From Bacteroidota bacterium (GTDB lineage: Bacteria; Bacteroidota; Bacteroidia; Bacteroidales; GCA-2748055), in NCBI GenBank assembly GCA_043797815.1, contig JAZDPG010000063.1, forward strand, positions 85,232 through 149,231: a stretch of 64,000 nucleotides of DNA, given 5' to 3'. Shown one piece after another: positions 5,860 through 24,103 of the stretch (positions are counted from its first letter, which is position 1; every line of letters begins with the position of its first letter). Made by a program: the position numbers and the translations under genes. The notes under the pieces were generated by a model. That model worked only from the letters and a program-made list of their open reading frames with translations, was not told where the DNA came from and searched no databases.

Positions 5860-5867
5860 CAGTTCTC

Positions 5868-7283: not shown

Positions 7284-7284
7284 C

Positions 7285-9282: not shown

Positions 9283-9286
9283 CAGG

Positions 9287-10384
9287 ATGTTGCCACGAAT
9301 CATCACCATGGGACTGTTCGTCATGCTTGCCTCCTCCGGGTGCATGAAGGATGATGAGCTCTGGGATTTTGAAAGGGCCCGGTTTCTAAAACCTTATCGT
9401 GGTGTATTTATTATCAATGAGGGTAACTTTACCTATGGAAATGCCTCACTTTCCTATTACGACATGGAAACGGGCGAGGTGTTTAATGACGTGTTTTTCA
9501 ATACCAACGCCCTTCCCATTGGAGATGTGGCCTTTTCCATGACCATTCATGACAGCCTTGGTTATGTGGTAGTCAACAACAGCGGCAGGATTTACATCAT
9601 CAATACCTCCACCTTCGAATATGTGGGAAAGATCAACGGATTCACATCTCCCCGGTACATGCACTTCATTTCAGACACCAAAGCCTATGTGACCGATCTT
9701 TATGCCAGGGCCATTGCTGTGGTGAACCCGGTTACCATGGAAATCAAGGGATCCATCGATGTAAACAACGGCTCATCCCGGTTCTGCCAGCACTCCACCG
9801 AGATGATGGTACAATTTGATAAGTATGTGTATGTCAATTGCTGGAGCTTCGACAACCTGATCCTAGTGATAGACTCCCAGCTTGACCGGGTTATCGATTC
9901 AATCCGGGTGCTCAAACAACCCAACTCCATGGTACTGGATGGTGAGGATAACCTGTGGATTCTCACCGATGGGGGTTTTCCGGAGAGCCCCTATGGCTAC
10001 GAGGCACCGGGCCTGTTGAAGATTGAACCGGGAGCCACCAATGCCGAGATCATGTACCGGTTTAAATGGGGGGAGACTCCATCAGAACTGCGAATAAATG
10101 GTTCAGGAGATACCCTCTACTTTCTGAACAGGCATGTTTACATCCTTCCCACTGGTTCCGGTCGGGACCCCGGTGTATTCATTCCAAGTCCTTACGATGA
10201 ATACTATCCGGGAGGATTCTATGGTCTGGGAGTGGATCAGGCTACCTCATCCGTCTATGTGGCGGATGCACTCGACTTCGTACAACGGGGGATGATCTAC
10301 CGTTTTGCACCTGATGGGATGCCAGTGGACACCTTCAGGGCAGGGATCGCTCCGGGCTCATTCTGTTTCAAGCCTTTCAATTAA
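9287..10384 (+). CDS. surface beta-propeller lipoprotein, BtuG-like (putative corrinoid-binding)
   Basis: 365-aa ORF 4 nt after btuB-like gene; lipobox LASSGC; repeated YVVNNSG / YVTDLYA / YVADALD blade-like motifs (YncE-like propeller); position matches Bacteroides btuB-btuG arrangement. Confidence 0.55.
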   Translation: MLPRIITMGLFVMLASSGCMKDDELWDFERARFLKPYRGVFIINEGNFTYGNASLSYYDMETGEVFNDVFFNTNALPIGDVAFSMTIHDSLGYVVVNNSGRIYIINTSTFEYVGKINGFTSPRYMHFISDTKAYVTDLYARAIAVVNPVTMEIKGSIDVNNGSSRFCQHSTEMMVQFDKYVYVNCWSFDNLILVIDSQLDRVIDSIRVLKQPNSMVLDGEDNLWILTDGGFPESPYGYEAPGLLKIEPGATNAEIMYRFKWGETPSELRINGSGDTLYFLNRHVYILPTGSGRDPGVFIPSPYDEYYPGGFYGLGVDQATSSVYVADALDFVQRGMIYRFAPDGMPVDTFRAGIAPGSFCFKPFN

Positions 10385-10453
10385 ACAGACGATGATGTAT
10401 AATCTCAAAGAAAAATCGTAATTTGTTGTTTGTTTATCATTGAATTTGCATCC

Positions 10454-11197
10454 ATGACAATTCATCAATATCAGAAAAAATGCTCCAAGGAGTACATTGA
10501 GAGCATTAAGTTTCCCAAGGAAAATTCCTATTTATATGGCAATCCGGTAGACGTGGTCATACCCATAGAAACGGCCATTGGTAAAGTTATGGTGATCGGG
10601 CCCCAGCCTGCTGCCAAAGTATACTTTGTGAATGATATCCCGGACGTTCCGCTCTATGATGCTACTGCCCCCTTTTCCATCGAGCCCTACTTTGATGGTT
10701 CCAGGGTAAGAAGTTCATTTACCGGACAGGAACTGTCCGAGGTTATTCTTGAAACGCTGGAAATTCCCAGGGAGCATTGCTGGCTCACCAGCCTGGTTAA
10801 GGTGTTCCTTTTCGATGATGACCATGTGAAAAAGTACCGCAGACTTGGCAAGGAGATCAGGGAAAACAGATCCAAATACATGGAGTATGCCAACAAAAGC
10901 CTGCCCTGGATCCGGCAGGAGATAGAAATTGCAAATCCTTATGCCATCATCCTTCTTGGAGAACAGGTTGTTTCAAGCCTGTTGCTTGTATCTGAAGAGA
11001 AAGCCCGGAGTTATATGACCGGGGAAGTCATCGAAAAGAAGATCATCTGGAAGAACAGCAATTTCATTTGCCTGCCACCTCCGGGTGTCATTCTGGATCG
11101 TTCTGCCAAAAATCCCTGGCCCCGGAAATTTGCCATTCAGATCGGGCCTGTGGCCATGAAAGAACTTGGAAGGCTCAGGTCACAACCCAGTATTTAA
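10454..11197 (+). CDS. hypothetical protein, possibly uracil-DNA-glycosylase-fold superfamily
   Basis: ORF 10430-11197 (TTG), ATG 10454 preferred; VMVIGPQPA and IILLGEQV...ICLPPPG vaguely resemble UDG motifs A/B but catalytic residues are not canonical. Confidence 0.35.
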   Translation: MTIHQYQKKCSKEYIESIKFPKENSYLYGNPVDVVIPIETAIGKVMVIGPQPAAKVYFVNDIPDVPLYDATAPFSIEPYFDGSRVRSSFTGQELSEVILETLEIPREHCWLTSLVKVFLFDDDHVKKYRRLGKEIRENRSKYMEYANKSLPWIRQEIEIANPYAIILLGEQVVSSLLLVSEEKARSYMTGEVIEKKIIWKNSNFICLPPPGVILDRSAKNPWPRKFAIQIGPVAMKELGRLRSQPSI

Positions 11198-11200
11198 TTT

Positions 11201-11698
11201 CTATTGATCTTTCAGGGGGATCCCGTGATCGAGCATGTACTGCCTGATCCTTTCCGCATGGTCCACATCCATCCTGTTCAGTTTTTTGAACAAGTCGCCC
11301 ACGTTTGAGTCCGTTTTGTTGACCATAAAAGCGTTGTAGTGTATTTCGCCTGCCGAGTTTTCAATCTTCAGCGCAAATTGAAAAGCACGGGTCCTGTCGG
11401 GATGGTTCTGAAAGCCATTGTATGCAGCGCTGATCTCCTGGTTGGATTTCACAAGCTCTTCCAACCTTTCCGGGAGCAGGTTACCCGGGATATCCACGTT
11501 GAGGCTTCCCATTTGTTTTACGGTCTTTAAAAGAGCAGCATGGTTCTCCTCTTCCAGGGTCAGCTTCCACCAGAATTGGGAATCACCTTTGAACTGCTCG
11601 TAGAACAGCAGATACAATTTACCGACATTGAGCTCCAACCGGATGGATTCATCAATCAGGGCTTTGAATTCCGGGTCGGTGTTTTTTGCTGAGGTCAT
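11201..11698 (-). CDS. ferritin-like / rubrerythrin-like diiron-fold protein
   Basis: ORF 11201-11752; ATG at 11698 (MTSAKN) preferred; E...EEENHA and E...DVDHAE pairs resemble the duplicated E/ExxH ferritin-like motif. Confidence 0.5.
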   Translation of the reverse strand: MTSAKNTDPEFKALIDESIRLELNVGKLYLLFYEQFKGDSQFWWKLTLEEENHAALLKTVKQMGSLNVDIPGNLLPERLEELVKSNQEISAAYNGFQNHPDRTRAFQFALKIENSAGEIHYNAFMVNKTDSNVGDLFKKLNRMDVDHAERIRQYMLDHGIPLKDQ

Positions 11699-11781
11699 GG
11701 GATCGAAATATATAAAAAGTATGGGATTCTTCAACACGGGTGTTTTTAACAAATCACTAACTTGCCTGCAAACAATGAAAG

Positions 11782-12465
11782 ATGAAAGAGATCTTCCTTC
11801 TCTTTTTATTGCTGGCCGCCATTTTTTTCTGTTCCTGTGAGGAGAATATCAACCCTCCGGAAGTAGGTGACCAGCAATTTACAACGAATGAAAACACCCC
11901 TGCCGGGACGATCATCGGTGTTGTGCAGGCTTATGATCTGGACCCGGGTCAGACGCTCTTTTTCAGGATCAAGGAAAGTGACAATACAGGGTCCTTCGAA
12001 GTTGATCCGGGGGGCGGACACATCACTGTGGCGGACCCAACCATGCTGGATTATGAGACCAACACGGAACTTGGTTTCACCATCCTTGTGACAGATGACG
12101 GTAAACCTCCCATGGAAACAGCTGCAAAAATCACCATTCTTTTGAAGGATGAAAATGAATTTGCCCCGGTTGTGGAGGATCAGGTATTTGAAATACAAGA
12201 GGGCGCGGTGATGGGAGCATTGATCGGGGTCATACTGGCCAGCGACCAGGAGCAACACCAGCCACTGAGGTTTACGATCCTGTCGGGAAATGAAGGCAAT
12301 GTATTTGCACTGGATGATGAGACAGGAGCACTCACGGTAAATGATCCGGCTGCGTTCGATACAGGTGTCAATACACAATTGATTCTCACCGTCCTGGTCA
12401 GGGACCTTCACATTGATTCCAAAACCGATACAGCCCTGATTACAGTCAACATCAATCCCGAATAA
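11782..12465 (+). CDS. cadherin-repeat lipoprotein (two cadherin domains)
   Basis: 227-aa ORF; lipobox IFFCSC; FTTNENTPAGTIIG...DYETN...ILVTDDG...LKDENEFAP repeated twice, classic cadherin repeat pattern. Confidence 0.8.
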   Translation: MKEIFLLFLLLAAIFFCSCEENINPPEVGDQQFTTNENTPAGTIIGVVQAYDLDPGQTLFFRIKESDNTGSFEVDPGGGHITVADPTMLDYETNTELGFTILVTDDGKPPMETAAKITILLKDENEFAPVVEDQVFEIQEGAVMGALIGVILASDQEQHQPLRFTILSGNEGNVFALDDETGALTVNDPAAFDTGVNTQLILTVLVRDLHIDSKTDTALITVNINPE

Positions 12466-12479
12466 TCTCGGAAACTCAA

Positions 12480-13856
12480 ATGTGGAAATTTTCAATGATC
12501 CTTCTTCTTGCCGTGATGCTGTCGGGATGCACCACAGGACCCATGCCCATCTTGCCTTCCCCCGAACAGGTTGCCTACCAGGAGATGGAGATGGTGGTTT
12601 TCATACACTTTACCATCAATACCTTTACCGACAAGGAGTGGGGATTCGGGGATGAAGACCCTGGGTGGTTTAATCCCACCGGGCTTAATGCAGAACAATG
12701 GGTGCTGGCTGCAAAAGCCGGGGGAATGAAGGAGTTGATCCTTACTGCAAAACACCATGATGGGTTTTGTTTGTGGCCCAGTGAATATACCCAGCACAGC
12801 ATAAAAGCCAGTCCCTATAAAGAGGGGAAAGGAGATATCGTCAGGGAGTTTGTGGATGCCTGCAGGAAGCATGGGCTGAAGGTGGGTCTCTATCTGTCTC
12901 CCTGGGACCGGAACCACAAGGATTATGGAAACCCGGAATACATTACCTACTACAGAAACCAGTTGAGGGAGTTGCTTACCAACTATGGGGAGATCAATGA
13001 GATATGGTTTGACGGGGCCAACGGCGGCGACGGATATTACGGAGGGGCCAACTGTGACCGGCGTGTAGACAAGCTTACCTATTACGATTGGCCAACCACT
13101 TTTTCACTGGTAAAAAAGCTGCAGCCCGGGATCAAGATCTTTTCCGATGCAGGTCCGGATATCCGCTGGGTGGGCAATGAGCATGGTTTTGCCGGGGAGA
13201 CCTTCTGGCCGACCATCTCCACCAAAGACCTGGTGATCGGGGACTCCGATCCGGCCTACCTGAACACGGGCGATCCCGGAGGGGATAAATGGATGATCGG
13301 TCAGTGCGATGTCTCCATCCGGCCCGGCTGGTTTTACCACGCCTCTGAGGATTCACTGGTCAAATCACCACAGGAACTGGTGGATATCTACTACAAATCT
13401 GTGGGCCGGAATGGTGTGTTGCTCCTGAATCTGCCCCCCGACAGGCGTGGATTGATCCATGAGACAGATGTGGCTCATCTCAGGGAGTTTAAAAAGATAC
13501 TCGATGAAACATTTGGCCAGAACCTGGGTAAGGGAGCCAAATGGACAACCGGGGATCAGGATACCTGTCCCATTGAGATGATCATTGACCTGGAGGGTCC
13601 TGTCACTTTCGACCGTATTCTGCTGGGTGAACCCATCCGGGAGGGCCAGCGGATCAGCAGCTTTCATGTGGATGCACAATTGGTTCACGGGAACTGGCAG
13701 GAAGTAGCCCGTGGGACAACCGTTGGTTACAAGCGCATCCTGAAAACCGGACTCATGACCACATCCAGACTTCGTGTGGTGGTGGACTCCTCTTTCTATA
13801 CGCCCTCCATCACCGAATTTGGATTGTACAGATCATCCCTGGGAGAGCTTCAGTAA
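12480..13856 (+). CDS. alpha-L-fucosidase (GH29), lipoprotein
   Basis: 458-aa ORF; lipobox MLSGC; HHDGFCLWPS...GLYLSPWD GH29 signature. Confidence 0.9.
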   Translation: MWKFSMILLLAVMLSGCTTGPMPILPSPEQVAYQEMEMVVFIHFTINTFTDKEWGFGDEDPGWFNPTGLNAEQWVLAAKAGGMKELILTAKHHDGFCLWPSEYTQHSIKASPYKEGKGDIVREFVDACRKHGLKVGLYLSPWDRNHKDYGNPEYITYYRNQLRELLTNYGEINEIWFDGANGGDGYYGGANCDRRVDKLTYYDWPTTFSLVKKLQPGIKIFSDAGPDIRWVGNEHGFAGETFWPTISTKDLVIGDSDPAYLNTGDPGGDKWMIGQCDVSIRPGWFYHASEDSLVKSPQELVDIYYKSVGRNGVLLLNLPPDRRGLIHETDVAHLREFKKILDETFGQNLGKGAKWTTGDQDTCPIEMIIDLEGPVTFDRILLGEPIREGQRISSFHVDAQLVHGNWQEVARGTTVGYKRILKTGLMTTSRLRVVVDSSFYTPSITEFGLYRSSLGELQ

Positions 13857-13938
13857 ACACATTGGGCTATTTACTAATTGCGTAACAGCGAATTATTTAA
13901 TAACTTATCCTGGTTATAGTTTACCTAAACCAAATATC

Positions 13939-14988
13939 ATGTCCCAAATAAACGAGAAGCTTATACGGCAGGTTTTTGAGGAGATGGTTAAAAGCAGGCC
14001 CGGTTTATCAAAGTACACAATGGTCGATGAGGATGAGGAGGAAGTAGATTACCGGATCCTGGCCGACCAGATCATAAAAAATTATCCCTGGCCCATCGGG
14101 ATTGAACTGAGAAGGCTATTCTCTGCAAGCATGAGGGAGCTGAATCGCCAGAGACTGGACCAGATCTTTAAAACCATTGAAAGGACCATGCAGTTTGTAT
14201 CCTTCGTGATGCTCTCCCAACTATGGCAAGATATACTTCAGAAGAAGATATCTATTCCTGAAAATGTGGCAAAAGAGTTAGAAAGCAGGTTGATGGTACT
14301 GAGTATGGGGAATTATGCATGGATGATCAGGGCCATTGGAAATCTCTACCAGGAGTCAGAGCATGATTGTTTTATGCCGGAGATGTCTGAACACCTGGAT
14401 AAGAAATTCTTTGCGGCACTGGATTTCTGGGTGCCGGAAAGAAATGAAATCGGTCATTACCAGATCAACCTGAACCAGGAGGAGATTGAGAAGCGCTGCG
14501 TGGAATATGAGGAGAAACTTACCTATATCCTGATCAAGATTGCATTCCTGGCAAAATACAGATTGGTTTCGGTCAGGGAGATCAGGGTGCAAAAACCTAA
14601 AAACAAAGAGGCCCGTTTCCATCATGTGGTGGACCTGCTGAACAGCTCCGATTCGGATTTTACAGCCAGGGAGATCGAAGAGGAGGCATTTTCTGAAAGC
14701 CATTCTGTCCTCCTGATGAAATCCATTAAATCCTTTGACGGATACCTGAATCTATCCCCTCTGATCATAGACACCCATTCGGAAGTATTGGATACCAAGG
14801 AAAAATTCGGAATCAAGAAAGATATTTTTATGTATACCAAATTCAGGGAGGATCACCTGATGTACCTGGGTACAGAAGTCACAGAGAAATGTGATCTGAG
14901 GAAAATGAGCAATTACATCCAGCTGGTTGATGAATTTAAACAGCTCCTTGCTTCCATATCCCCTGCCGAGGCAACTGTTGAGCCTTGA
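13939..14988 (+). CDS. hypothetical protein with HEPN-like RNxxxH motif (island gene A)
   Basis: ORF 13774-14988 trimmed to ATG 13939, because upstream codons only overlap the fucosidase 3-prime end; 349 aa, no signal or TM; helix-rich N-half; PERNEIGH at 14437-14457; 35 nt upstream of NTPase gene B. Confidence 0.6.
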   Translation: MSQINEKLIRQVFEEMVKSRPGLSKYTMVDEDEEEVDYRILADQIIKNYPWPIGIELRRLFSASMRELNRQRLDQIFKTIERTMQFVSFVMLSQLWQDILQKKISIPENVAKELESRLMVLSMGNYAWMIRAIGNLYQESEHDCFMPEMSEHLDKKFFAALDFWVPERNEIGHYQINLNQEEIEKRCVEYEEKLTYILIKIAFLAKYRLVSVREIRVQKPKNKEARFHHVVDLLNSSDSDFTAREIEEEAFSESHSVLLMKSIKSFDGYLNLSPLIIDTHSEVLDTKEKFGIKKDIFMYTKFREDHLMYLGTEVTEKCDLRKMSNYIQLVDEFKQLLASISPAEATVEP

Positions 14989-15023
14989 TTGAACAAGACT
15001 ACTCCCAAAACTCGTAGCCCAAT

Positions 15024-17813
15024 ATGAAATCCCCATTTAAATTCCTGGACGCTTACACCCATGAAGACCGGACCATCTTCTTTGGGCGGGACAGGGAGAT
15101 TGAGGAGTTGTACCAGAAGGTATTCGAAAGCAAGATTCTTCTGGTGTATGGAATTTCCGGAACGGGCAAGTCTTCCTTGATCAATTGTGGTTTGGCCAAC
15201 AAGTTCGAGGAGAGCGACTGGCTGCCCATCAGCATCCGTCGTGGGAAGGACATCAACCAAAGCCTGGAGTCCGAGATTCGCAAGGCATCCATCACTGAGC
15301 TGAAAGATGGCGTTTCCATCAGGAACGCCCTTCAGTCGGTATACCTGGATCATTTCAAACCTGTCTACCTGATCTTTGACCAGTTCGAGGAGTTGTTCAT
15401 CTTTGGAAAACGGCAGGAGAGGGATGATTTCATCCGGACCATTACAGAACTGATCCAATCTGATATCCATTGCAAATGCCTGTTTTCAATCCGGGAAGAG
15501 TACCTGGCGAACATGACCGAGTTTGAACAGGTGATCGATCATATTCTGGACAACCGGATCCGTGTGGAGAAAATGACCAGAGTCCATGCCGTTGATGTGA
15601 TTGAAGGTCCATGCAGGGTGCAGCAAATTGATCTCGAGGAGGGTTTTGCAGCGCGGTTGCTGGAAAAACTAAGCCCTGATTCCAATGAGATCGAGCTCAC
15701 ATTCCTGCAGGTATTCCTTGACCGGATTTTCAGAATGTCAGGCAAGGAAGGAGATGACCTGAAGTTCACCAATGAAATGATCGGAAAGGTTGGTGATGTA
15801 AGCAACCTGCTGGGTGATTTTCTCGAGGAACAGATCAGGGAATTGGAGGATCCGGATGCCGGAATGACCCTTTTGAAGGCTTTTGTATCGGTCAAAGGAA
15901 CAAAACGGCAGGTGGAAGATTCACAGATCCTGGATTCAGTCCGGGCCCTGGGGAAAAACATATCCCCTGAAGAGATCACTGTTCTGGTCCAGAAATTCAT
16001 TAAACTGCGGATTCTGAGAGACAAGGATGAGAATGGCAGGTATGAATTAAGGCACGATAGTCTGGCCGCCAAGATCTACGAGAATATAACGCTTGTTGAA
16101 AAGGAGCTGCTTGAGATCAGGCAATTCATTGAGAATGCCTTCGATGTATGGCAGAAACGCGGTATACTCCTCGATAAAGACGATCTTGATTACATCGCTC
16201 CCTATGAGAAGAAGCTGTTTTTAGAAGAAAAATCACAAGATTTTGTTGAAAAATGTAGAAGAAGCCTGGAGGTAAAAAAGAGATCATTTCGCAGGATCAT
16301 GGCCATCTCGGCAGCTGGATTTCTGCTGATACTTTCGGCCATAGCCATATACTCTTTCAGGTTTTCATTCAGTAGAAAGGCCGACCGGCTGGCCCAAATA
16401 TCTTCACTTCAACGTGAATTCTCCCTGCCTTTGAGTTACTATACGGCCAAAGCCGCTCTTGCGAAAGATCCCAAATCCTCATTTGCTGTAAAAGCGCTGT
16501 TTGATGCTTTTTATGGGTTGCTGGAGGGTGGTCCCTATTATGATTCAGCCGGCCATCTCCTGGATCCGCAAAAAACCATATTTGATTTTTCACCGGTGGG
16601 ATCAGAAATTGAAAATGCCGGTTTTTCGGAAGATGGGTCACTTATCTACGGAACCCTGGAGAACGGAACAGTCAAAATTTGGGACCGGCAGGGACATGAG
16701 TTGTTTTCAAAAGCCGATTCAACAGCTCAGGTTATCGATATGATCATCTCTCCTGACAACCAAACCATCGCCGTGGTATTCCGGGACAGTACTGCCACCT
16801 TCTGGGATCTATCGGGACGCTTTATTACCTCAGTAAGCCTGAGCTACGAACCGGTGAGCCCAAAAGATGCCGTCGCTTTCTCAAGGGATTCCAGAACCTT
16901 TGCCATCACCGGCAGGGAGAACCAGATCGCATTTTACAATGTAACTGGGGACTTTCTCTATGAGATGCATGGTCATTCGGAGGCAGTGACTGGATTGTCC
17001 TTTTCCCCTGATAGTCAGTACCTGGCATCTTCATCCAAAGACTCCTCAATCATGATCTGGAAATTGGATGATGATCTGGGAATGTTTACGGAGTTCAGAC
17101 GATTTGATAAGACATTCGGTGCCAGGGTATGGTCGGTTGATTTTGCACAGAACTCCAGATGGATCCTCTGTACATCAGAAACATTTTTCTATAAAAATGA
17201 AAAAGATACCTTTTGGGTTGTATTTTATGACGTCATAGATGTGGTGAACTTCAATGGATCGAGAAAATTTATTGTTATTGCCCGGACCTCCAGCACGGAG
17301 AAAGATCCCAGGTACCAGTCAAAACTGGTATATGGTGCTCGATTCACAGCCGATGATGCGGCAATTGTCTATCATACCATTGATTCCGTCGGGACGAACA
17401 ATGGTAACGAAATGATCTTATCATTGCCCCGGTACAGGCTGGAGTTTTCAAAAAACAGTCTTCGGTGGATGACCAATACAAACAGGAGCATTAGAAAGGA
17501 TAATATACTTGAAAATACAGATCCATATACTCTGAATGGAGCTGATTTTTCAGTTCAGGGTTTTGTGGCCTCCAGTATCACCAATTCAGCCACCACAAAC
17601 CTGTCACATTACGACGAAATACCGATCCGAAAATTCAAAGGGAACCACCCGGTATTTTCCAATGATGGCAATTATCTGCTCTGTATCAGTGAAAATAAAT
17701 TGTGCCTCTATCCGGCTTCAACAACACTAATTATGGATCTGGTGGATGGAAGAAAAATCTTTGGTGAGATAGAGGGAAACCTGAGTGACTGGCGCCACTA
17801 TGTAACTCAATAG
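15024..17813 (+). CDS. nSTAND-type P-loop NTPase - single TM - WD40 beta-propeller protein (island gene B)
   Basis: 929 aa; FFGRDREIEEL, Walker A GISGTGKS (15150-15173), Walker B YLIFDQFEELF; hydrophobic IMAISAAGFLLILSAIAIYSF (16297-16359) after KKRSFRR; WD40 repeats, e.g. HSEAVTGLSFSPDSQYLASSSKDSSIMIWKL. Confidence 0.85.
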   Translation: MKSPFKFLDAYTHEDRTIFFGRDREIEELYQKVFESKILLVYGISGTGKSSLINCGLANKFEESDWLPISIRRGKDINQSLESEIRKASITELKDGVSIRNALQSVYLDHFKPVYLIFDQFEELFIFGKRQERDDFIRTITELIQSDIHCKCLFSIREEYLANMTEFEQVIDHILDNRIRVEKMTRVHAVDVIEGPCRVQQIDLEEGFAARLLEKLSPDSNEIELTFLQVFLDRIFRMSGKEGDDLKFTNEMIGKVGDVSNLLGDFLEEQIRELEDPDAGMTLLKAFVSVKGTKRQVEDSQILDSVRALGKNISPEEITVLVQKFIKLRILRDKDENGRYELRHDSLAAKIYENITLVEKELLEIRQFIENAFDVWQKRGILLDKDDLDYIAPYEKKLFLEEKSQDFVEKCRRSLEVKKRSFRRIMAISAAGFLLILSAIAIYSFRFSFSRKADRLAQISSLQREFSLPLSYYTAKAALAKDPKSSFAVKALFDAFYGLLEGGPYYDSAGHLLDPQKTIFDFSPVGSEIENAGFSEDGSLIYGTLENGTVKIWDRQGHELFSKADSTAQVIDMIISPDNQTIAVVFRDSTATFWDLSGRFITSVSLSYEPVSPKDAVAFSRDSRTFAITGRENQIAFYNVTGDFLYEMHGHSEAVTGLSFSPDSQYLASSSKDSSIMIWKLDDDLGMFTEFRRFDKTFGARVWSVDFAQNSRWILCTSETFFYKNEKDTFWVVFYDVIDVVNFNGSRKFIVIARTSSTEKDPRYQSKLVYGARFTADDAAIVYHTIDSVGTNNGNEMILSLPRYRLEFSKNSLRWMTNTNRSIRKDNILENTDPYTLNGADFSVQGFVASSITNSATTNLSHYDEIPIRKFKGNHPVFSNDGNYLLCISENKLCLYPASTTLIMDLVDGRKIFGEIEGNLSDWRHYVTQ
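15033..16224 (+). repeat. diverged direct duplication, copy 1 (NTPase module of gene B)
   Basis: About 1.2 kb alignable to 18873-20055. By eye, roughly two thirds of the amino acids are identical and DNA identity is about three quarters in the first 250 nt. Confidence 0.75.
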
Positions 17814-17820
17814 TCTGTTT

Positions 17821-18729
17821 TTATTTTAGCTTTCTGATATTGTATTCCTCCATCTGAAAGTGTGTTTCTGCTCCTGAATGACCCTTAAAAAAGATCTTTT
17901 TATAGGTGTCAGGTGGAAGAACAAACCTCATGGACATCATTGTAAAGAGGAACAGGGTGGGCAGGATGATGATCCTTATAAAATGTTTTTTTTGCATGAC
18001 CGGCCATTCCAGGTAATTTGAAAAAGGCATGGCTATCAGCAGGGAAAGGGCAGCTATTAAAAAAGCAACAATGACGATCAGATCGAATACCCCCAAAGTT
18101 TTCACTGTAAAACTTAGGTTTTGAAAAAACAGCGTTGTGGTGCATACACAAAGCAATAGACATAAAAGAAAGAAAAGTCTCTTCAAAAACAGTTGTTTCC
18201 GGAAATGAAAAAGTGATATGATTGCCTCTTTCAGAATACAGGCAGATAATAAAAAATAACCCATAAAAATCATATACATTGCTTCCGAATCAGCACCCAT
18301 CCGGTTCAGGACAAGGCCTGTGATAATTGCCGGAATAAGCCAGGAAATGATATGGGAGGTTTTGTCATGGTAGATGAACAGAAGCAATAAAACGATTCCC
18401 ACCACAAAAATTTCCCCGATCTCTTCAATGGTCCTTTTCAAGTCATTTAAGAAATCGGTTCTTGGTAATCGTATATAGGTGATAAACCAAAATATGATTC
18501 CTATACCATACAGGATAAAAAGCAGCGCCTTAAATCTTGAGGGGATCGAGGACGGCTTGATGATCAGCAAAACACCTAGAGCCAAAGCGATGGCAAAGGA
18601 TGTGATCCCCAGTACTGTTGATACTATATATGTATTGGTAAACCATGAGTGGGCATCTGCAACTATGGTGCCCAGAACGGCAGATATCAGCAGGATCCAT
18701 CTCCAGCGGTTGAGTTTATCCACTTGCAT
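17821..18729 (-). CDS. polytopic membrane protein of unknown function (island gene C)
   Basis: 302-aa ORF, about 8 hydrophobic segments, very AT-rich (hand count 33-47 percent GC per 60-nt line); convergent with B (7-nt gap), divergent from D. Confidence 0.65.
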   Translation of the reverse strand: MQVDKLNRWRWILLISAVLGTIVADAHSWFTNTYIVSTVLGITSFAIALALGVLLIIKPSSIPSRFKALLFILYGIGIIFWFITYIRLPRTDFLNDLKRTIEEIGEIFVVGIVLLLLFIYHDKTSHIISWLIPAIITGLVLNRMGADSEAMYMIFMGYFLLSACILKEAIISLFHFRKQLFLKRLFFLLCLLLCVCTTTLFFQNLSFTVKTLGVFDLIVIVAFLIAALSLLIAMPFSNYLEWPVMQKKHFIRIIILPTLFLFTMMSMRFVLPPDTYKKIFFKGHSGAETHFQMEEYNIRKLK

Positions 18730-18854
18730 ATTCCGGTGATTGAATAGTCAAATTACGACTTTACCAAAGAATTCGCAAGTGATCACCTTGCGGTTCTTTA
18801 CAGATATCTGTTTTTTTAATAACTTATCAATTAATATAATGCTATACAGGTACC

Positions 18855-21800
18855 ATGGCAACTGCTTTCAGTCCGTTTAAATTCCTGGATGCTTACACTC
18901 GTGAAGACAGGGAGATCTTCTTTGGGCGGGACCGTGAGATTGAGGACATATACCAGAAAGTATTTGAGAGCAAGATTCTGCTGGTATATGGGATTTCGGG
19001 AACAGGGAAGACTTCATTGATCAATTGCGGACTGGCCAATAAATTTGCTGAGAGTGACTGGTTGCCCATCAATATACGAAGAGGAAAAGACATTAATGAG
19101 AGCCTGATTTCGGAGATTAAAAAAGCCTCCATTACCGATTTGAAAAAGGGCCTGACCATTCTCAACACGATCCAGTCTGTATACCTGGACCATTTCAAAC
19201 CCATCTACCTCATTTTTGACCAGTTTGAAGAGTTATTCATTTTCGGGGAGCGGCAGGAAAGGGATGTTTTCATGCATACCATTGGCGAAATCGTGAAATC
19301 TGATCTTCAATGCAAATGCTTGTTTTCGATCCGGGAGGAATACCTGGCAGGAGTCACAGAATTCGAAAGTTCCATACCTGATTTTCTGGCCAACCGGATA
19401 CGAATTGAAAAAATGACACATCAGAATGCCAGAGAGGTGATCGAAGGTCCATGTGAAGTGAATGGAATCAAAGTCGGAGATGGATTTACAGATTCCTTAC
19501 TGCATAAACTGAATCCCAATTCCAACGAAATTGAGCTGACCTACCTGCAAGTTTTCCTGGATAAGATCTTCAAACTGTCAGGAGATCACAAAGAGTTTTC
19601 CCGGGCGCAGATAGAACAGGTAGGTGATGTGAGTGATCTGCTTGGGAGTTTCCTGGAAGAACAGATTGGAGAACTTGAAGATCCCGACACAGGCCTGGTT
19701 GTACTGAAGGCTTTTGTATCCACGCAGGGAACTAAAAAACAGATCGGCGAAGAAGAGATTCGTGATTTTGCAAATACGCTGGGCAAACCCCTGGAAAGCA
19801 AAAAGGTTACAGACCTGTTGGTACGGTTTGTGAATCTCCGGGTGTTGAAGGATAAAGATGATCACAACCAGTATGAGTTGAGGCATGACAGCCTTGCGGT
19901 TAAGATATATGAAAAAATCACTCTGGTTGAAAAGGAATTGCTTGAAATAAAGGACTTTCTGGACAATTCATTCAACAATTTTGAGCGCAGGGGCATTTAT
20001 CTGAATGAAGCGGACCTGAAATATATCGCTCCTTATGAGGACAAACTTTTTCTAAGCAAGAAGCTTCAGAGCCTTATTTCTGTAAGCAAAGGTGCCCTTG
20101 TGAAGGCTCAAAGAAGAAAAAGGAGGTTGATCGCTGTTGTGGCCATATGCATGATCGCTGTTTTGTCCTTTTTTACTGGTTGGGCCATACTGGAAAGGGG
20201 AAACGCAATTGATCAATCAAAACTGGCAGAAGCGCAGAGACAGGAAGCCATCGAAGCCGGGTTAGATGCTGAAAAATCTCGTGAAATCGCTGAAGAGAAC
20301 GAAAAAATAGCATTGCTCTCTAAAAAAGAAGCTGAGGAATCCAAAGAAGAAGCAATCCATGCCAGGGATATTGCGACTAAGGAATTGTATGAGAATATAA
20401 GATCCTCATTCACGATCTCCACAATAGCAATGAATGTCCTGTACAGAGGCCTTAATAATCCTATAAGTATCTCGGCATCAGGAATCAAAAAAGAGAATCT
20501 ATTGGTTTCAATTGATAATGGTAGCATCGATTTCGATGAAACGAAAAATAATGGGTATGCAAGACCAGGCGGTTCCCGGAAGGCCACAATCTCCTTAAGT
20601 GGAATTACAAATTTTGGGGATACCCTATATTTGGGGGCAATGGATTTCAGGGTATTAGACCTTCCGAAACCCACAGCAAGTATTGCAGGCCTGAAAGGTG
20701 GGGCAATATCTATGTCAGACCTGATTAATGCCAAGGGAGTTGATGCTGCTGCTGATGATTTTCTGTTTGAGGTTGACTTTGTTGTAACAGAATTCTCATT
20801 GGTAATTGTCTATGGGGGTATTTATTCTTCCCGGTTTTCGGATAGTAACAGGTTTACCCAGGAACAGATACAAATGTTAAGGTTATTTCGTCCAGGCCAA
20901 AAGCTAACAATTGATGATATAAAAGCCATTGGACCAGATGGCAGACTGCGTACATTGAATTCCATCACCTTTGAAATACTTGATTTGTCTGAACCAGAGA
21001 TCCAGGCACTAATAGAAGATCCCGAAGCAATTACAAATATTGAACAATTGATAGCAGTATTACAAAAGTTGGAAAATGAGGAGCGTTGGAGAAGATACTC
21101 AGAAATTGTATCCGATCATTATAAAATCCTGGAGAATGATTTTGAATCGCTGAATAGTGCCCTATGGAATATGTACCTGCATGGAGACAGATATTTCTTA
21201 TTCAGAGCACAGGAGGCAGCAATTGACCTGGTTCAAAAAAGTAATCGTAAACCGGACTACATTCATACCCTGGCAGCCTTAACCTATAAACTCGGGGAGA
21301 TAGAAAAAGCACTGGAACTGGAGAAGGAAGCCATAGTATTGGCTGATGAGAAAGGAGGAGATACTGAGCATTTTCAGACGCTTGTTGTTGAGATGAGTGA
21401 TCCTGAAAACCCGCAGAACTATTTATTTAGAGGTCTGAGAATGGAACGGGAGCCGGGATTAGACGAACAGGCAATGGAAATGTACAGGAAGGCAGTTATT
21501 ATTGATCCAGAGTATGCACCCGGGTGGTATCAACTGGGTAGTATGCATGATCGATTCAGTAATGATGAGGGATTCAGCAGGGACTCGGCCATGTACTTTT
21601 ACGCAAAAGCAATTGAATCTGATCCGGGATTTGAAGATGCGGTTATTTCCATGGTATACAAATATGATAGAAGCCAAACTGATGAGAAGATTGATTTATT
21701 GAATGGTTTTCTTGAAGTGGAGCCGTCGAGTAAAAGTGGATGGCGTTTAATACATCCGCTATATATTGAGGCACAAGAGCTGGAAAAATCATTGGATGCT

Positions 21801-22139
21801 GCCCGCAATTATCTGGAACTGGATTCAGTAAATGTATTTGGCTATACAATGCTCAGTGAATCATACATTTATCTTCAGGACTATGAAGCGTCCATTCATT
21901 CTGCCCGAAAGGGTTTAAGCCTGGGTACTGAAAATGGCAATGCAGAAGCATTTCTTGTAATCGCCTATGCTTTGAATGGAGAATTTGCAAAAAGCGACGC
22001 GATCATTCGGCTCAAAAAGTTTGACATTCAATCCAAACAACGACTCAGCATGAATTTAATTGAAATACTGGATGAATTGGAAAACAATCAAATCACCCAC
22101 CCCGATTTTGAGAAAATCCGTACGTTAATAAATGAATAA
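18855..22139 (+). CDS. nSTAND-type P-loop NTPase - single TM - coiled coil - GldM/PorM-like domain - TPR protein (island gene D)
   Basis: 1094 aa; same NTPase module as B (GISGTGKT, YLIFDQFEELF); TM LIAVVAICMIAVLSFFTGWAIL (20127-20192) after KAQRRKRR; E/K-rich coiled coil; NVLYRGLNNPISISASG...FRVLDLPKPTASI...IKAIGPDGRLRTL (about 20400-20985); TPR-like C-terminus. Confidence 0.85.
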   Translation: MATAFSPFKFLDAYTREDREIFFGRDREIEDIYQKVFESKILLVYGISGTGKTSLINCGLANKFAESDWLPINIRRGKDINESLISEIKKASITDLKKGLTILNTIQSVYLDHFKPIYLIFDQFEELFIFGERQERDVFMHTIGEIVKSDLQCKCLFSIREEYLAGVTEFESSIPDFLANRIRIEKMTHQNAREVIEGPCEVNGIKVGDGFTDSLLHKLNPNSNEIELTYLQVFLDKIFKLSGDHKEFSRAQIEQVGDVSDLLGSFLEEQIGELEDPDTGLVVLKAFVSTQGTKKQIGEEEIRDFANTLGKPLESKKVTDLLVRFVNLRVLKDKDDHNQYELRHDSLAVKIYEKITLVEKELLEIKDFLDNSFNNFERRGIYLNEADLKYIAPYEDKLFLSKKLQSLISVSKGALVKAQRRKRRLIAVVAICMIAVLSFFTGWAILERGNAIDQSKLAEAQRQEAIEAGLDAEKSREIAEENEKIALLSKKEAEESKEEAIHARDIATKELYENIRSSFTISTIAMNVLYRGLNNPISISASGIKKENLLVSIDNGSIDFDETKNNGYARPGGSRKATISLSGITNFGDTLYLGAMDFRVLDLPKPTASIAGLKGGAISMSDLINAKGVDAAADDFLFEVDFVVTEFSLVIVYGGIYSSRFSDSNRFTQEQIQMLRLFRPGQKLTIDDIKAIGPDGRLRTLNSITFEILDLSEPEIQALIEDPEAITNIEQLIAVLQKLENEERWRRYSEIVSDHYKILENDFESLNSALWNMYLHGDRYFLFRAQEAAIDLVQKSNRKPDYIHTLAALTYKLGEIEKALELEKEAIVLADEKGGDTEHFQTLVVEMSDPENPQNYLFRGLRMEREPGLDEQAMEMYRKAVIIDPEYAPGWYQLGSMHDRFSNDEGFSRDSAMYFYAKAIESDPGFEDAVISMVYKYDRSQTDEKIDLLNGFLEVEPSSKSGWRLIHPLYIEAQELEKSLDAARNYLELDSVNVFGYTMLSESYIYLQDYEASIHSARKGLSLGTENGNAEAFLVIAYALNGEFAKSDAIIRLKKFDIQSKQRLSMNLIEILDELENNQITHPDFEKIRTLINE
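18873..20055 (+). repeat. diverged direct duplication, copy 2 (NTPase module of gene D)
   Basis: Alignable to 15033-16224; similarity stops shortly before the TM segments, and the C-terminal regions are unrelated. Confidence 0.75.
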
Positions 22140-22148
22140 ATACCGGAT

Positions 22149-22211
22149 ATGAAATCTCCATTCAAAATGTTTGATTCATGCCCCAGGGTTGCCAGGAAGA
22201 TAATACTATGA
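22149..22211 (+). other. 20-codon mini-ORF, relic of an nSTAND NTPase 5-prime end; possible coupling uORF for the phosphatase gene
   Basis: atgaaatctccattcaaaatgtttgat (MKSPFKMFD) versus gene B start atgaaatccccatttaaattcctggac (MKSPFKFLD); stop TGA overlaps ATG 22208 as ATGA. Confidence 0.5.
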
Positions 22212-24103
22212 ATTCAGAGAATAATAGAACAGTCGCTCCAGGAAAATCAGGAGAGGATCCATTGATTGACATTGATTCACTGAATGAGGAATCGTGGAGT
22301 TTGAGGTATAAGGACCAGGTGGCATCGGAGACCAAAGCCATGACAGCTTTGAGCATGGCCCGGGAAATCAATTATTTCAGAGGGCAGGCTTATGCTTGCC
22401 TGAATCTGGCGGCTGGCCATTTCCTGAAATCTTCTAATAAGGATGCCCTTGAGTTGCTGGCTGATGCTCTCGGTTATTTCAATTCCCATACTGATGAACC
22501 GGGTTACGCTGCGGTCCTCAATTACACAGGCAACATTTATGAAAGTTTTGGAGATTATGAGACAGCCCTGGATTACTGTCTAAGAGCCTACAATACTGCT
22601 GTTCAAATCGGGAACAATGAGATGGTGGGGGAGGTGCAGAGCGTGCTTGGACTGATCTACAGCCGCATGTCGGATTATGACCGGGCGCTGAAGGCACATA
22701 AGGAGAGTCTGCGGATCAGGGAGGAGAAGGGGGACCAGATGGCTGCGGCTTCTTCCCTGAACCGGATCGCCAGGATCCATACCCTGACCAGGGAGTACGA
22801 TAAAGCACTGGAGTATTATAACAGGAGCCTGTCCATCAGGGAGAAGTTGGGGCAGAAAGGATTGCTGGCCTGGACTTACCTTGGATTGGCAAGTACGTAC
22901 GAAGCGATGGAAATGTATGAAGAAGCTAGAGATTATTATAGGAAAATGTTGAAAGGAGAACACCAATGCCTGGACGACCGTTGCAGGATGCAGGCCACTC
23001 TTGGACTGGGAAGAACCCTGCATAAGCTGAACCTTGAAGAAGAGGCTTTAAGTTGCTTTGAAAACTCCCTGGCACTTGCCATACAGCTGGAAGCAAAACC
23101 GCTGCAGGTGGAATCTCATTCTGCCCTGGCTGATTTTTATGAATCTTCAGGTCAGTTCGAAAAAGCCCTTTACCATTATAAGGCATACAGGAGTACCCGG
23201 GAAGCTGTCATGGATGATGAGACCCGCAACCGGTTGAAAAACCAACAGATCGCTTTTGCAGTTGAGAAGAGTGAAAAGGAAAAGGAGATTTTCCAGCTTC
23301 GAAATGTGGAGTTGAAATCGGCGTATGATGAGATCCACCACAAGAACAAAGAGATCACCGACAGCATCAATTACGCCAGCCGGATCCAGGGGGCCCTGTT
23401 GCCGCAGAATGCAAACCTGAAAGGGATGTTCCCGGATCACTTCATTATCTTCCTTCCAAAGGATATGGTGAGCGGAGATTTCTATTGGGCTACAGAGGTT
23501 GGAAAGCAAATGGTTTTTGCTGCGGCAGATTGCACAGGGCATGGCGTACCTGGCGCGCTCATGAGTATGCTGGGAATATCGTTTCTAAATGAGGTGGTGA
23601 TAGAACGCGGACAAACCAATCCAGGTGAGATTCTGGATAACCTCAGGGATGAGGTAATCAAAGCTCTGAAGCAAAGCGGTAAGGCAGATGAGCAGAAAGA
23701 TGGGATGGACATAGCTCTTTGCACCTACGATTCGGAATCAGGGGTTATCAAATTTGCTGGAGCATATAATCCCTTGTACCTTGTCAGGGAAGGATCTCTG
23801 GAAGAGTATAAAGCCGATAGAATGCCCATCAGTTATTACCATGGGGTTCAGGATTCATTTAAGACTACCTCAATCAAGGTACAAAAAGGGGACGCGCTTT
23901 ATCTGTTCTCGGACGGATTCGCTGACCAATTCGGAGGTCCACACCGGAAGAAATTCAAATACAAACCCCTGAAAGAGTTGCTGGAACTTATCCATGAAAA
24001 ATCCATGCAGAAACAGAAACTTGTCCTCTACGAGAAGTTTCTCGACTGGAAAGGGGTATACGACCAGATCGACGATGTGGTGATGATCGGGATCAGAATC
24101 TGA
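22208..24103 (+). CDS. TPR-repeat protein with C-terminal PP2C/SpoIIE-family serine phosphatase domain (island gene E)
   Basis: ORF 22178-24103; ATG 22208 preferred (ATGA overlap with mini-ORF); TPR repeats, coiled coil, then SGDFYW...AADCTGHGVPGALMSM...DGMDIAL...SDGFADQ phosphatase motifs. Confidence 0.85.
   Translation: MNSENNRTVAPGKSGEDPLIDIDSLNEESWSLRYKDQVASETKAMTALSMAREINYFRGQAYACLNLAAGHFLKSSNKDALELLADALGYFNSHTDEPGYAAVLNYTGNIYESFGDYETALDYCLRAYNTAVQIGNNEMVGEVQSVLGLIYSRMSDYDRALKAHKESLRIREEKGDQMAAASSLNRIARIHTLTREYDKALEYYNRSLSIREKLGQKGLLAWTYLGLASTYEAMEMYEEARDYYRKMLKGEHQCLDDRCRMQATLGLGRTLHKLNLEEEALSCFENSLALAIQLEAKPLQVESHSALADFYESSGQFEKALYHYKAYRSTREAVMDDETRNRLKNQQIAFAVEKSEKEKEIFQLRNVELKSAYDEIHHKNKEITDSINYASRIQGALLPQNANLKGMFPDHFIIFLPKDMVSGDFYWATEVGKQMVFAAADCTGHGVPGALMSMLGISFLNEVVIERGQTNPGEILDNLRDEVIKALKQSGKADEQKDGMDIALCTYDSESGVIKFAGAYNPLYLVREGSLEEYKADRMPISYYHGVQDSFKTTSIKVQKGDALYLFSDGFADQFGGPHRKKFKYKPLKELLELIHEKSMQKQKLVLYEKFLDWKGVYDQIDDVVMIGIRI

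Follow-up and report, generated by a model that had tools for sequence, protein, structure and literature searches.

We analysed a 64,000-nucleotide (nt) stretch of a Bacteroidota genome (GenBank assembly GCA_043797815.1, contig JAZDPG010000063.1, positions 85,232 to 149,231 of the forward strand; hereafter the window), focusing on five adjacent genes, A to E. Our results suggest that this locus is probably a trans-envelope STAND switch, conserved in Bacteroidales, in which membrane-anchored nSTAND1 nucleoside triphosphatases (NTPases), B and D, would activate A, a HEPN-like ribonuclease (RNase). The architecture of the switch is well supported. An earlier note on this DNA, made from the sequence alone, had described five adjacent genes here, and all were recovered as open reading frames (ORFs):

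13939-14988, + strand: A, a 349-amino-acid (aa) cytoplasmic protein without a family match, with a helical HEPN-like domain at about residues 36-206 and a beta domain at residues 208-311
15024-17813, + strand: B, with nSTAND1 and WD40 matches in Pfam
17821-18729, - strand: C, a 302-aa protein with 8-9 transmembrane segments by hydropathy, without a Pfam match
18855-22139, + strand: D, with nSTAND1, GldM_3rd, GldM_4th and weak TPR matches in Pfam
22178-24103, + strand: E, a soluble protein with TPR and SpoIIE/PP2C phosphatase matches in Pfam (PP2C at residues 443-640, positions 23504-24097)

For comparison, one genome per species was scanned with a closer-set alignment (A2), yielding 202 relatives of A among species-representative genomes. 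The best 80 of these loci, almost all from Bacteroidota, were fetched, subjected to naive ORF calling and searched with segments of the window proteins; the metagenome-assembled genomes (MAGs) among them contain frameshifts. Loci from this survey are cited by L-numbers.

B and D are membrane-anchored nSTAND1 NTPases

The assignment of B and D to the nSTAND1 NTPases, proposed earlier from motifs, was borne out by Pfam family PF20703, which matched B with 148.9 bits (residues 4-379) and D with 134.4 bits (from residue 7) against a cut-off of 27.1. With the match starting at residue 4 or 7, both proteins begin directly with the NTPase module, as the earlier note had also stated. Walker A (GxxGxGK[ST]) and a Walker B-like hhhDQFEE motif are intact in both; they are kept in 70/70 and 69/70 modules of relatives, respectively, and an N-terminal SPFKFLD motif is found in 64 of the 70. 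These motifs show B and D as nSTAND1 NTPases with predicted intact catalytic sites. The two proteins are 64% identical over residues 3-438; the similarity ends at the membrane helix, beyond which they are unrelated. Their parts, all on the + strand, are as follows:

B residues 1-420: nSTAND1 module (Pfam)
16296-16352, B residues 425-443: transmembrane helix (hydropathy)
B residues 517-750: WD40/beta-propeller (Pfam)
17529-17810, B residues 836-929: conserved C-terminal tail, found in every nSTAND1 protein encoded convergently with a C-like gene
D residues 1-420: nSTAND1 module (Pfam)
20127-20183, D residues 425-443: transmembrane helix (hydropathy)
D between the transmembrane helix and the GldM domains: charged helical stretch
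20409-20978, D residues 519-708: GldM/PorM domains 3-4 (Pfam, NCBIfam)
D about residues 715-1094: TPR (weak Pfam match)

Each protein contains one strongly hydrophobic 19-mer (Kyte-Doolittle 2.3-2.4) after a lysine/arginine (K/R) cluster, in agreement with the single transmembrane segment described before. This feature is conserved: a single hydrophobic peak of at least 1.8, about 434 residues in, was observed in 61 of 62 distinct full-length nSTAND1 relatives, and a second strong peak in none (0/62). The number of K and R in the 15 residues before the helix averages 6.7, compared with 3.2 after it, and the N-terminal side is the richer one in 60/61. Since the NTPase needs cytoplasmic NTP, the variable C-terminal domains of B and D should be periplasmic, with the N-terminus inside and the C-terminus outside, which is the orientation that the earlier note had favoured. 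The GldM domains of D are natively periplasmic and fit this topology.

Protein A is encoded next to nSTAND1 and carries a HEPN-type motif

We found that the pairing of A with B, suggested for the window, extends to related loci. An nSTAND1 gene lies directly after A in each of the four genomes examined first. Among 70 loci with at least 600 nt of sequence after A, nSTAND1 is the next gene in 58 and lies within 10 kb of A in 6 more (64/70 in total); three of the 6 loci without nSTAND1 after A have less than 2 kb of sequence beyond A. A role of A as an obligate partner of nSTAND1 is thus strongly supported by direct adjacency in 58/70 loci. The identities of A and of the NTPase are also correlated (mirror-tree, Spearman 0.79), which we judged uninformative because neighbouring genes share phylogeny.

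Other genes can also follow A directly. AAA_14-like P-loop ORFs stand directly after A in L034 (two at 10966-14352, between A and nSTAND1) and in L085 (three at 8695-12899, a locus in which no nSTAND1 was found), and a Pfam run on one L085 copy identified it as AAA_14 plus DUF4143. The junction may be an insertion hotspot.

No match to A was obtained in Pfam, NCBIfam, PADLOC or PHROGs. The family is large, with 1078 homologues (clusters at 90% identity) at E <= 0.001, and identity to A is 67-90% for the best 120, whose sources are MAGs of Bacteroidales or Bacteroidota. By hydropathy A has no transmembrane segment, and its AlphaFold2 model (predicted local distance difference test score, pLDDT, 89.9) consists of the helical domain, the beta domain and a C-terminal helix. 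Comparison of A with the PDB by sequence and by profile returned nothing significant, and comparison with viral predicted structures returned nothing. The best match in a fold search with the full-length model (E 0.08) was ribosomal S12-like and covered the beta domain only, a weak resemblance; S12 has an OB fold.

The RNEIGH motif that the earlier note had pointed out in A is present in the helical domain:

14440-14457, + strand: RNEIGH, A residues 168-173, HEPN-type Rx4H motif, candidate RNase active site

An Rx4H spacing with N after R is the HEPN signature and lies within the Rx4-6H motif of this superfamily, in which a polar residue usually follows R. R168 and N169 are nearly invariant across the family alignment, and the R, N and H of the motif are invariant in 28 standalone members (alignment A5). 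A Pfam scan of 34 family members gave sub-threshold matches in 7/34 to four HEPN families, RiboL-PSP (best 5.5e-4), Swt1, Apea and Csm6_HEPN. When the helical domain was modelled separately (pLDDT 92) and compared with the PDB by Foldseek, the top matches were HEPN toxins, SO_3166 (5yep), HepT (7bxo, 6m6u), YutE (1ylm) and 1wwp, at non-significant values (E 0.8-5, template modelling score 0.38-0.47). Each of these lines is weak alone, and together they point in the same direction, giving moderate support to A as a putative HEPN-like RNase output.

We also considered A as a candidate EACC1, a protein in whose systems nSTAND1 has been mentioned. EACC1 is a small single-transmembrane pore former, encoded in a two-gene system beside a caspase-fused component; A, a 349-aa soluble protein without a transmembrane segment, was rejected as such.

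The candidate catalytic motif of A is absent from forms fused to another output domain

An exhaustive search of cluster representatives retrieved 630 relatives of A, many of which have N-terminal extensions consisting of a CHAT protease, an AraC-type helix-turn-helix (HTH), or an AraC HTH plus a nucleotide cyclase. Genes for CHAT-A and HTH-cyclase-A lie directly upstream of a Pfam-confirmed nSTAND1 gene; an HTH-A gene is followed by a 763-aa ORF, a candidate nSTAND1. Among cluster representatives of at least 300 aa, RNxxxH is kept in 28/40 standalone A proteins compared with 0/68 fused ones (Fisher 9e-17, phylogeny ignored). Since the motif is lost exactly when another output domain is fused, the family behaves as a modular coupling domain. 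The simplest reading is that the A scaffold couples to the NTPase, and that RNxxxH serves as the output only where no other output domain is present.

One CHAT-A fusion occurs in a different operon (L092:6244-13953). A 586-aa protein of unknown function overlaps the start of CHAT-A. Downstream of CHAT-A come, in order, an nSTAND1 that is short and soluble (354 aa), a CarboxypepD_reg-like protein, a further unknown protein and a Peptidase_S41. This operon looks like a soluble sister system.

C pairs with the tail of B, and an outer-membrane partner defines a second subtype

C had been described as an 8-transmembrane protein on the opposite strand, and its 8-9 hydrophobic peaks agree with this. 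It is convergent with B across a gap of 7 nt, and C-like genes in 12 related loci are likewise convergent with an nSTAND1-WD40 gene, a few nt apart. The tail domain of B, its last ~85 residues, follows this arrangement: it was detected in 9/9 nSTAND1 proteins first scored as C-adjacent versus 4/52 others (Fisher 4e-8, phylogeny ignored). Two of these four others have a C-like neighbour that had been missed (the second copy of L020, and L082); in L022 the tail-bearing gene lies at a contig end, and in L018 no C-like ORF was called downstream. A C-like neighbour was never found beside a tail-less nSTAND1. These counts show that C-like genes pair specifically with B-type (WD40 plus tail) proteins, and they make the B tail a candidate contact site for C.

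The C family is characterised by two putative GldL_N-like hairpins and a conserved LPxS[GN]YIxW C-terminal segment (family alignment A4), and most members have two F[KR]xxHWPG loops. C relatives scored 24.0 (L002), 22.8 (L019) and 22.6 bits (L061) against Pfam GldL_N (PF22827; cut-off 24), with E-values of 4.4e-5 to 1.2e-4, and the C-family profile matched P0276, annotated PF22827. The window C is a diverged member of this fast-evolving family, with degenerate HWPG loops and no Pfam match, including GldL_N; it is 100% identical to an NCBI protein from a Bacteroidota MAG. Word-based searches for C homologues returned only 4-5 proteins, membrane-helix words dominating such searches.

All-vs-all clustering of the loci uncovered a further partner, a protein of 355-380 aa with a signal peptide, a TPR-like region and an OMP_b-brl_2 barrel (33.7 bits versus a cut-off of 27 in the L030 copy, L030:13908-14978). 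In 16 loci (L008, L010, L027, L030, L042, L045, L050, L051, L057, L060, L063, L064, L065, L070, L078 and L084) its gene immediately follows a single nSTAND1 gene. These loci have zero overlap with the C-type loci, which defines them as a second subtype that reaches the outer membrane.

The GldM-type protein D, the phosphatase E and a relic between them

Beyond its membrane helix, D matches GldM_3rd (48.8 bits, cut-off 25.2, residues 519-600) and GldM_4th (67.5 bits, cut-off 24.6, residues 604-708). Residues 512-709 align to positions 317-524 of the 524 positions of TIGR03517, the NCBIfam model of GldM/PorM (E 2.8e-26); at 92.4 bits, under the equivalog cut-off of 180, D is not a full-length GldM/PorM. 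The nSTAND1-transmembrane-GldM architecture was also observed in L012, L018, L025, L041 and L054, and a GldM-type protein is present in 5/45 loci.

The relic NTPase start reported between D and E was also found:

22149-22211, + strand: 5' end of a relic nSTAND1 gene, overlapping the start of E

Its ATG opens the sequence MKSPFKMFDS (MKSPFKFLDA in B), after which it runs out of register and stops after 20 codons; about 24/31 nt are identical to the start of B. In tandem arrays, for example those of L002 and L014, the next paralogue has its start at the position taken here by the relic.

E combines TPR with a PP2C/SpoIIE phosphatase domain (PF07228, 73.2 bits versus a cut-off of 25), in accordance with its earlier description as a TPR-PP2C phosphatase. 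Against the NCBIfam SiaA-like PP2C model it scored 182.7 bits under a cut-off of 700, and it is not a SiaA equivalog. A second ATG at 22208 (MNSENN...) is a possible start: the first ten codons of E overlap the relic, and E relatives are about 20 residues shorter. The true start of E may therefore be at 22208.

The earlier note had paired E with D. This pairing is unsupported, because no E-like gene was found in the D-type loci L012, L018, L025, L041 and L054, and E-like genes occur in loci without a D-type protein. E-like TPR-PP2C genes were identified in 13 of about 82 loci. Both subtypes are represented, and the genes are arranged in one of two ways, either directly after C (L014, L019, L020, L082) or divergent and upstream of A (L030, L051, L063, L087). 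The usual gene order is A-B-C-E, and in the window D and the relic are inserted between C and E. E thus looks like a facultative component of the whole locus.

A competing explanation is that the unit consists of A, B and C alone, that E and possibly D lie beside it by chance, and that the phosphatase belongs to an unrelated partner-switching pathway. We regard this as a serious possibility, although not the one we favour. TPR-PP2C proteins are abundant paralogues in Bacteroidota, the 13 loci are a minority, no STAS or kinase partner of E was found in the locus, and D has an upstream element of its own and stands without E elsewhere. This explanation is opposed by the recurrence of E-like genes in both subtypes and two arrangements, by L001, in which a histidine kinase with a TPR region homologous to that of E (39% identity) is encoded directly upstream of A, and by the retention of E at 75-79% identity in syntenic relatives even though the adjacent cassette has been replaced.

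A stable chromosomal site with an exchangeable sensor cassette

The locus had been called an island, and comparison with the two closest relatives did not show it to be a mobile one. In both, synteny extends on both sides of the locus. The flanking genes are 57-89% identical to those of the syntenic relatives, A 81-83%, the NTPase modules 66-81% (D closer than B) and E 75-79%, whereas the B ectodomain, the D ectodomain and C have no counterpart, an outer-membrane-type arrangement standing in place of C and D. Because synteny is kept on both sides, together with A, the NTPase and E, while the cassette in the middle has been swapped, the locus is a stable site on the chromosome, at which the signalling core stays constant and the sensor cassette can be exchanged; it is not a mobile island. 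G+C content is lowest in C (39.7%) and in the D ectodomain (40.8%), compared with 47.8% for the window. No integrase or transposase was seen among the flanking genes scanned, in line with the earlier note, and no tRNA gene was found in the 64-kb window, so that this marker of an integration site of mobile islands is absent.

A-, C- and E-type genes all recur next to B/D homologues, so the linkage on which the earlier proposal depended is upheld. Its expectation that the locus matches no already named system likewise stands: searches of the window proteins in PHROGs, NCBIfam and PADLOC identified no named system, and PADLOC-DB v2 gave only P-loop-level or TPR/WD40-level matches. Arrays hold up to 3-4 nSTAND1 paralogues. 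One complete 3.5 Mb Bacteroidales MAG chromosome (OY970346.1) carries at least 4 A-nSTAND1 loci (L028, L029, L039, L057); a comparison of L028, L039 and L057 gave identities of 62-79% for the A copies and 53-61% for the NTPase modules.

A 14-mer occurs upstream of both A and D:

13896-13909, + strand: TTTAATAACTTATC, 29 nt upstream of the start codon of A
18815-18828, + strand: identical second copy, 26 nt upstream of the start codon of D

These are the only two copies in the window, where 0 are expected by chance. The 14-mer is found at the same distance upstream of A in L003/L008 and also upstream of A in the closest relative, and related ATAACTT[TA]AC strings precede A in many loci. The Bacteroidetes promoter -7 consensus is TAnnTTTG, and by its resemblance to this consensus the 14-mer is probably a promoter (-7 box-like) element. 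It may be a promoter/operator shared by A and D, or the footprint of the recombination that placed D.

The upstream flank encodes type IX cargo proteins, a TonB-dependent receptor, UDG, a cadherin-domain protein and a fucosidase; the downstream flank encodes PmbA/TldD and a 3-keto-disaccharide hydrolase. At 4345-10384, two Por_Secre_tail cargo proteins (4345-7283) are followed by the TonB-dependent receptor, which has a weak, sub-threshold BtuB-like match, and a DUF5074 protein, in an order kept in the syntenic relatives. The 227-aa cadherin-domain ORF (11782-12495, + strand) is nearly wholly overlapped by a 229-aa ORF on the minus strand; of this pair, only the + strand ORF has Pfam support and a counterpart in a relative.

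Proposed mechanism and alternative readings

We propose the following model for the locus. A periplasmic or envelope cue would be bound directly by the variable C-terminal domain, or via C or the outer-membrane partner. The signal would pass through the membrane helix and lead to NTP-dependent oligomerisation of the cytoplasmic NTPase modules, which would then recruit A via its scaffold and bring the HEPN-like domains together. The united HEPN-like domains could cleave RNA, causing growth arrest or a reprogrammed state; in relatives whose A lacks RNxxxH, the fused CHAT protease, AraC HTH or nucleotide cyclase would provide the output instead. E, the TPR-PP2C protein, may act as a facultative modulator. 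The trigger would most likely be an attack on the envelope, such as phage entry or a rival's toxin, and this is the least secure step of the model. A role in conflict is favoured because of the nSTAND1 clade, the HEPN and CHAT outputs, the turnover of sensors and the arrays of paralogues.

Several points weigh against this model. The topology of B and D is based on hydropathy and the positive-inside rule. No curated HEPN profile matched A above threshold, the window protein itself gave no HEPN match, the HEPN toxins topping the Foldseek list of the helical domain were not significant, and the full-length A model matched nothing in the PDB by fold at E <= 0.001. No candidate substrate of E was found nearby. 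The locus counts and Fisher values ignore phylogeny, and the locus survey covers the best 80 of 202 genome matches. Other points concern biology: the flanks contain housekeeping and metabolic genes and not defence genes, A evolves as slowly as TldD or UDG in the syntenic relatives, a scan of viral contigs detected no relative of A, and some A relatives carry an AraC HTH. These last four fit ordinary signalling as well as they fit defence.

Ordinary trans-envelope sensing of a nutrient, a glycan or the state of the envelope is accordingly the principal alternative for the function of the locus; A would then be a regulated RNase or regulator rather than a suicide effector, and the system would parallel FecA-FecR-FecI or the Bacteroides hybrid two-component systems. 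In its favour, relatives of A are fused to AraC domains, and A evolves slowly, is inherited vertically and has non-defence neighbours. A relatives fused to an AraC-type HTH, with or without a nucleotide cyclase, also adjoin confirmed or candidate nSTAND1 genes; A is conserved like the housekeeping genes that flank its syntenic site; the neighbours include glycoside hydrolases, TonB-dependent receptors and peptidases; 16 loci have an outer-membrane beta-barrel partner; and no copy occurs on viral contigs. Moreover, STAND proteins of the MalT type are classical regulators. We nevertheless consider ordinary sensing rather unlikely. Both the fusions to a CHAT protease and the motif of HEPN type are features typical of conflict effectors, and the nSTAND1 clade has been described only from predicted counter-invader systems. 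The sensors are swapped wholesale, the variable part is lower in G+C, and the paralogues form arrays of 3-4, with at least 4 loci in one genome.

It is improbable that the locus is a device of the type IX secretion/gliding machine that monitors or regulates its assembly or use, D docking on the GldK/GldN ring via GldM/PorM domains 3-4 and the C hairpins embracing the B helix: the alignment of D to GldM/PorM, the GldL_N matches of the C family, the Por_Secre_tail cargo proteins of this organism and the near-restriction of the best 80 of 202 genome matches to Bacteroidota speak for it, but the GldM-type protein is confined to 5/45 loci, C pairs with the WD40 type and not with the GldM type, GldL_N scores lie at or under the cut-off, the window C has no such match and degenerate HWPG loops, and gldK/L/M/N were not linked in the loci examined.

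Returning to the trans-envelope switch, a further and doubtful step would be to regard B, D and their relatives as receptor-type NLR-like proteins. Their ligand-binding domain would lie outside the cytoplasm and be wired either through parts borrowed from the gliding and type IX motor, namely the GldM stalk and hairpins like those of GldL, or through a barrel in the outer membrane. It would detect an envelope attack before cell entry, with a HEPN RNase as the answer. As a new universal adaptor, A would couple nSTAND1 to RNase, caspase-like, cyclase or transcriptional outputs.

Bacterial, plant and animal immune switches of the STAND/NLR type examined to date respond to intracellular signals. 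If our model is true, a widespread family with periplasmic sensors shows that the STAND switch can also act as a surface receptor, and it offers a way to study how Bacteroidales, abundant members of sediment, soil and gut communities, sense phage, attack by rivals or the state of their envelope. The size of the A family, with its 1078 homologues, 202 genome matches and, at most, four or more loci per genome, adds to its interest. The loss of the catalytic motif of A upon fusion constitutes a clear testable prediction of its reading as a coupling domain, and a second interaction open to testing is that between the B tail and its GldL-like membrane partner.

Comparison with known systems

nSTAND1 was named in predicted counter-invader systems with fused effectors or adaptors (Kaur, Burroughs, Iyer and Aravind; eLife 2021, PMC8195603; 2020, PMC7159879). 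The NTPases of those systems and B/D belong to the same clade (PF20703), and the logic is shared: the NTP switch stays constant, the C-terminal sensors vary, and effectors can replace one another, caspase-like proteases and nucleotide cyclases being examples. The described systems have N-terminal effectors or adaptors (EAD, Death-like) and lectin/FGE or repeat sensors. In the present locus, by contrast, the NTPase is N-terminal and followed by a one-helix anchor, the predicted position of the sensor is outside the cytoplasm, the effector/adaptor is a separate, unnamed HEPN-like protein, and envelope partners are added, either a GldL_N-like protein or an outer-membrane barrel. Transmembrane-bearing bacterial NACHT (STAND) proteins have been suggested computationally to sense membrane or periplasmic signals. 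The proposal that the system is undescribed therefore holds in part: the concept is not wholly new, but our literature searches found no description of a system that combines the A family with a single-pass nSTAND1 bearing a propeller or GldM domains in the periplasm, a GldL-like protein paired with the B tail, and the outer-membrane partner.

Avs/AVAST and NACHT proteins are likewise STAND NTPases: when they oligomerise, their C-terminal sensors set off an effector. In the characterised members, a single soluble chain bears the fused effector at its N-terminus and recognises phage proteins in the cytoplasm. B and D, unlike Avs/AVAST, lack an N-terminal fused effector and have one transmembrane helix after the NTPase module. 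B scored 15.5 bits against the NCBIfam Avs4 model (cut-off 1500), and no PADLOC Avs or NACHT model was matched.

In 2013, Anantharaman et al. are said to have described HEPN RNases, among them HepT/MNT toxins, Csm6 and RNase L, as being activated by induced dimerisation. A shares with HEPN RNases an Rx4H motif that has N next to R and opens a helix of a helical bundle, shows a weak profile and fold likeness to the toxins, and differs from them in an extra N-terminal helical part and a C-terminal beta domain. We know of no HEPN protein that has a membrane STAND NTPase as its activator.

With GldM, D shares domains 3-4 behind a single helix with the N-terminus inside, in the same topology; it lacks domains 1-2 and reaches 92 bits against the 180-bit equivalog cut-off. 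The C family has putative GldL_N-like hairpins, two per chain, plus extra helices; C seems to lack an obvious counterpart of the conserved acidic residue of GldL. In contrast to the partners of the GldL/GldM motor, C pairs with WD40-type and not with GldM-type proteins.

Finally, FecA-FecR-FecI and the Bacteroides hybrid two-component systems likewise combine an outer-membrane protein, a single-pass transducer and a cytoplasmic output, and the hybrid systems have periplasmic propellers and AraC outputs, both of which occur in some relatives of our locus. They differ in the transducer, which is an anti-sigma factor or a kinase there and a STAND NTPase in our locus. This NTPase is also oriented the other way round, its cytoplasmic module being N-terminal, and the predicted output of the locus is HEPN-like.

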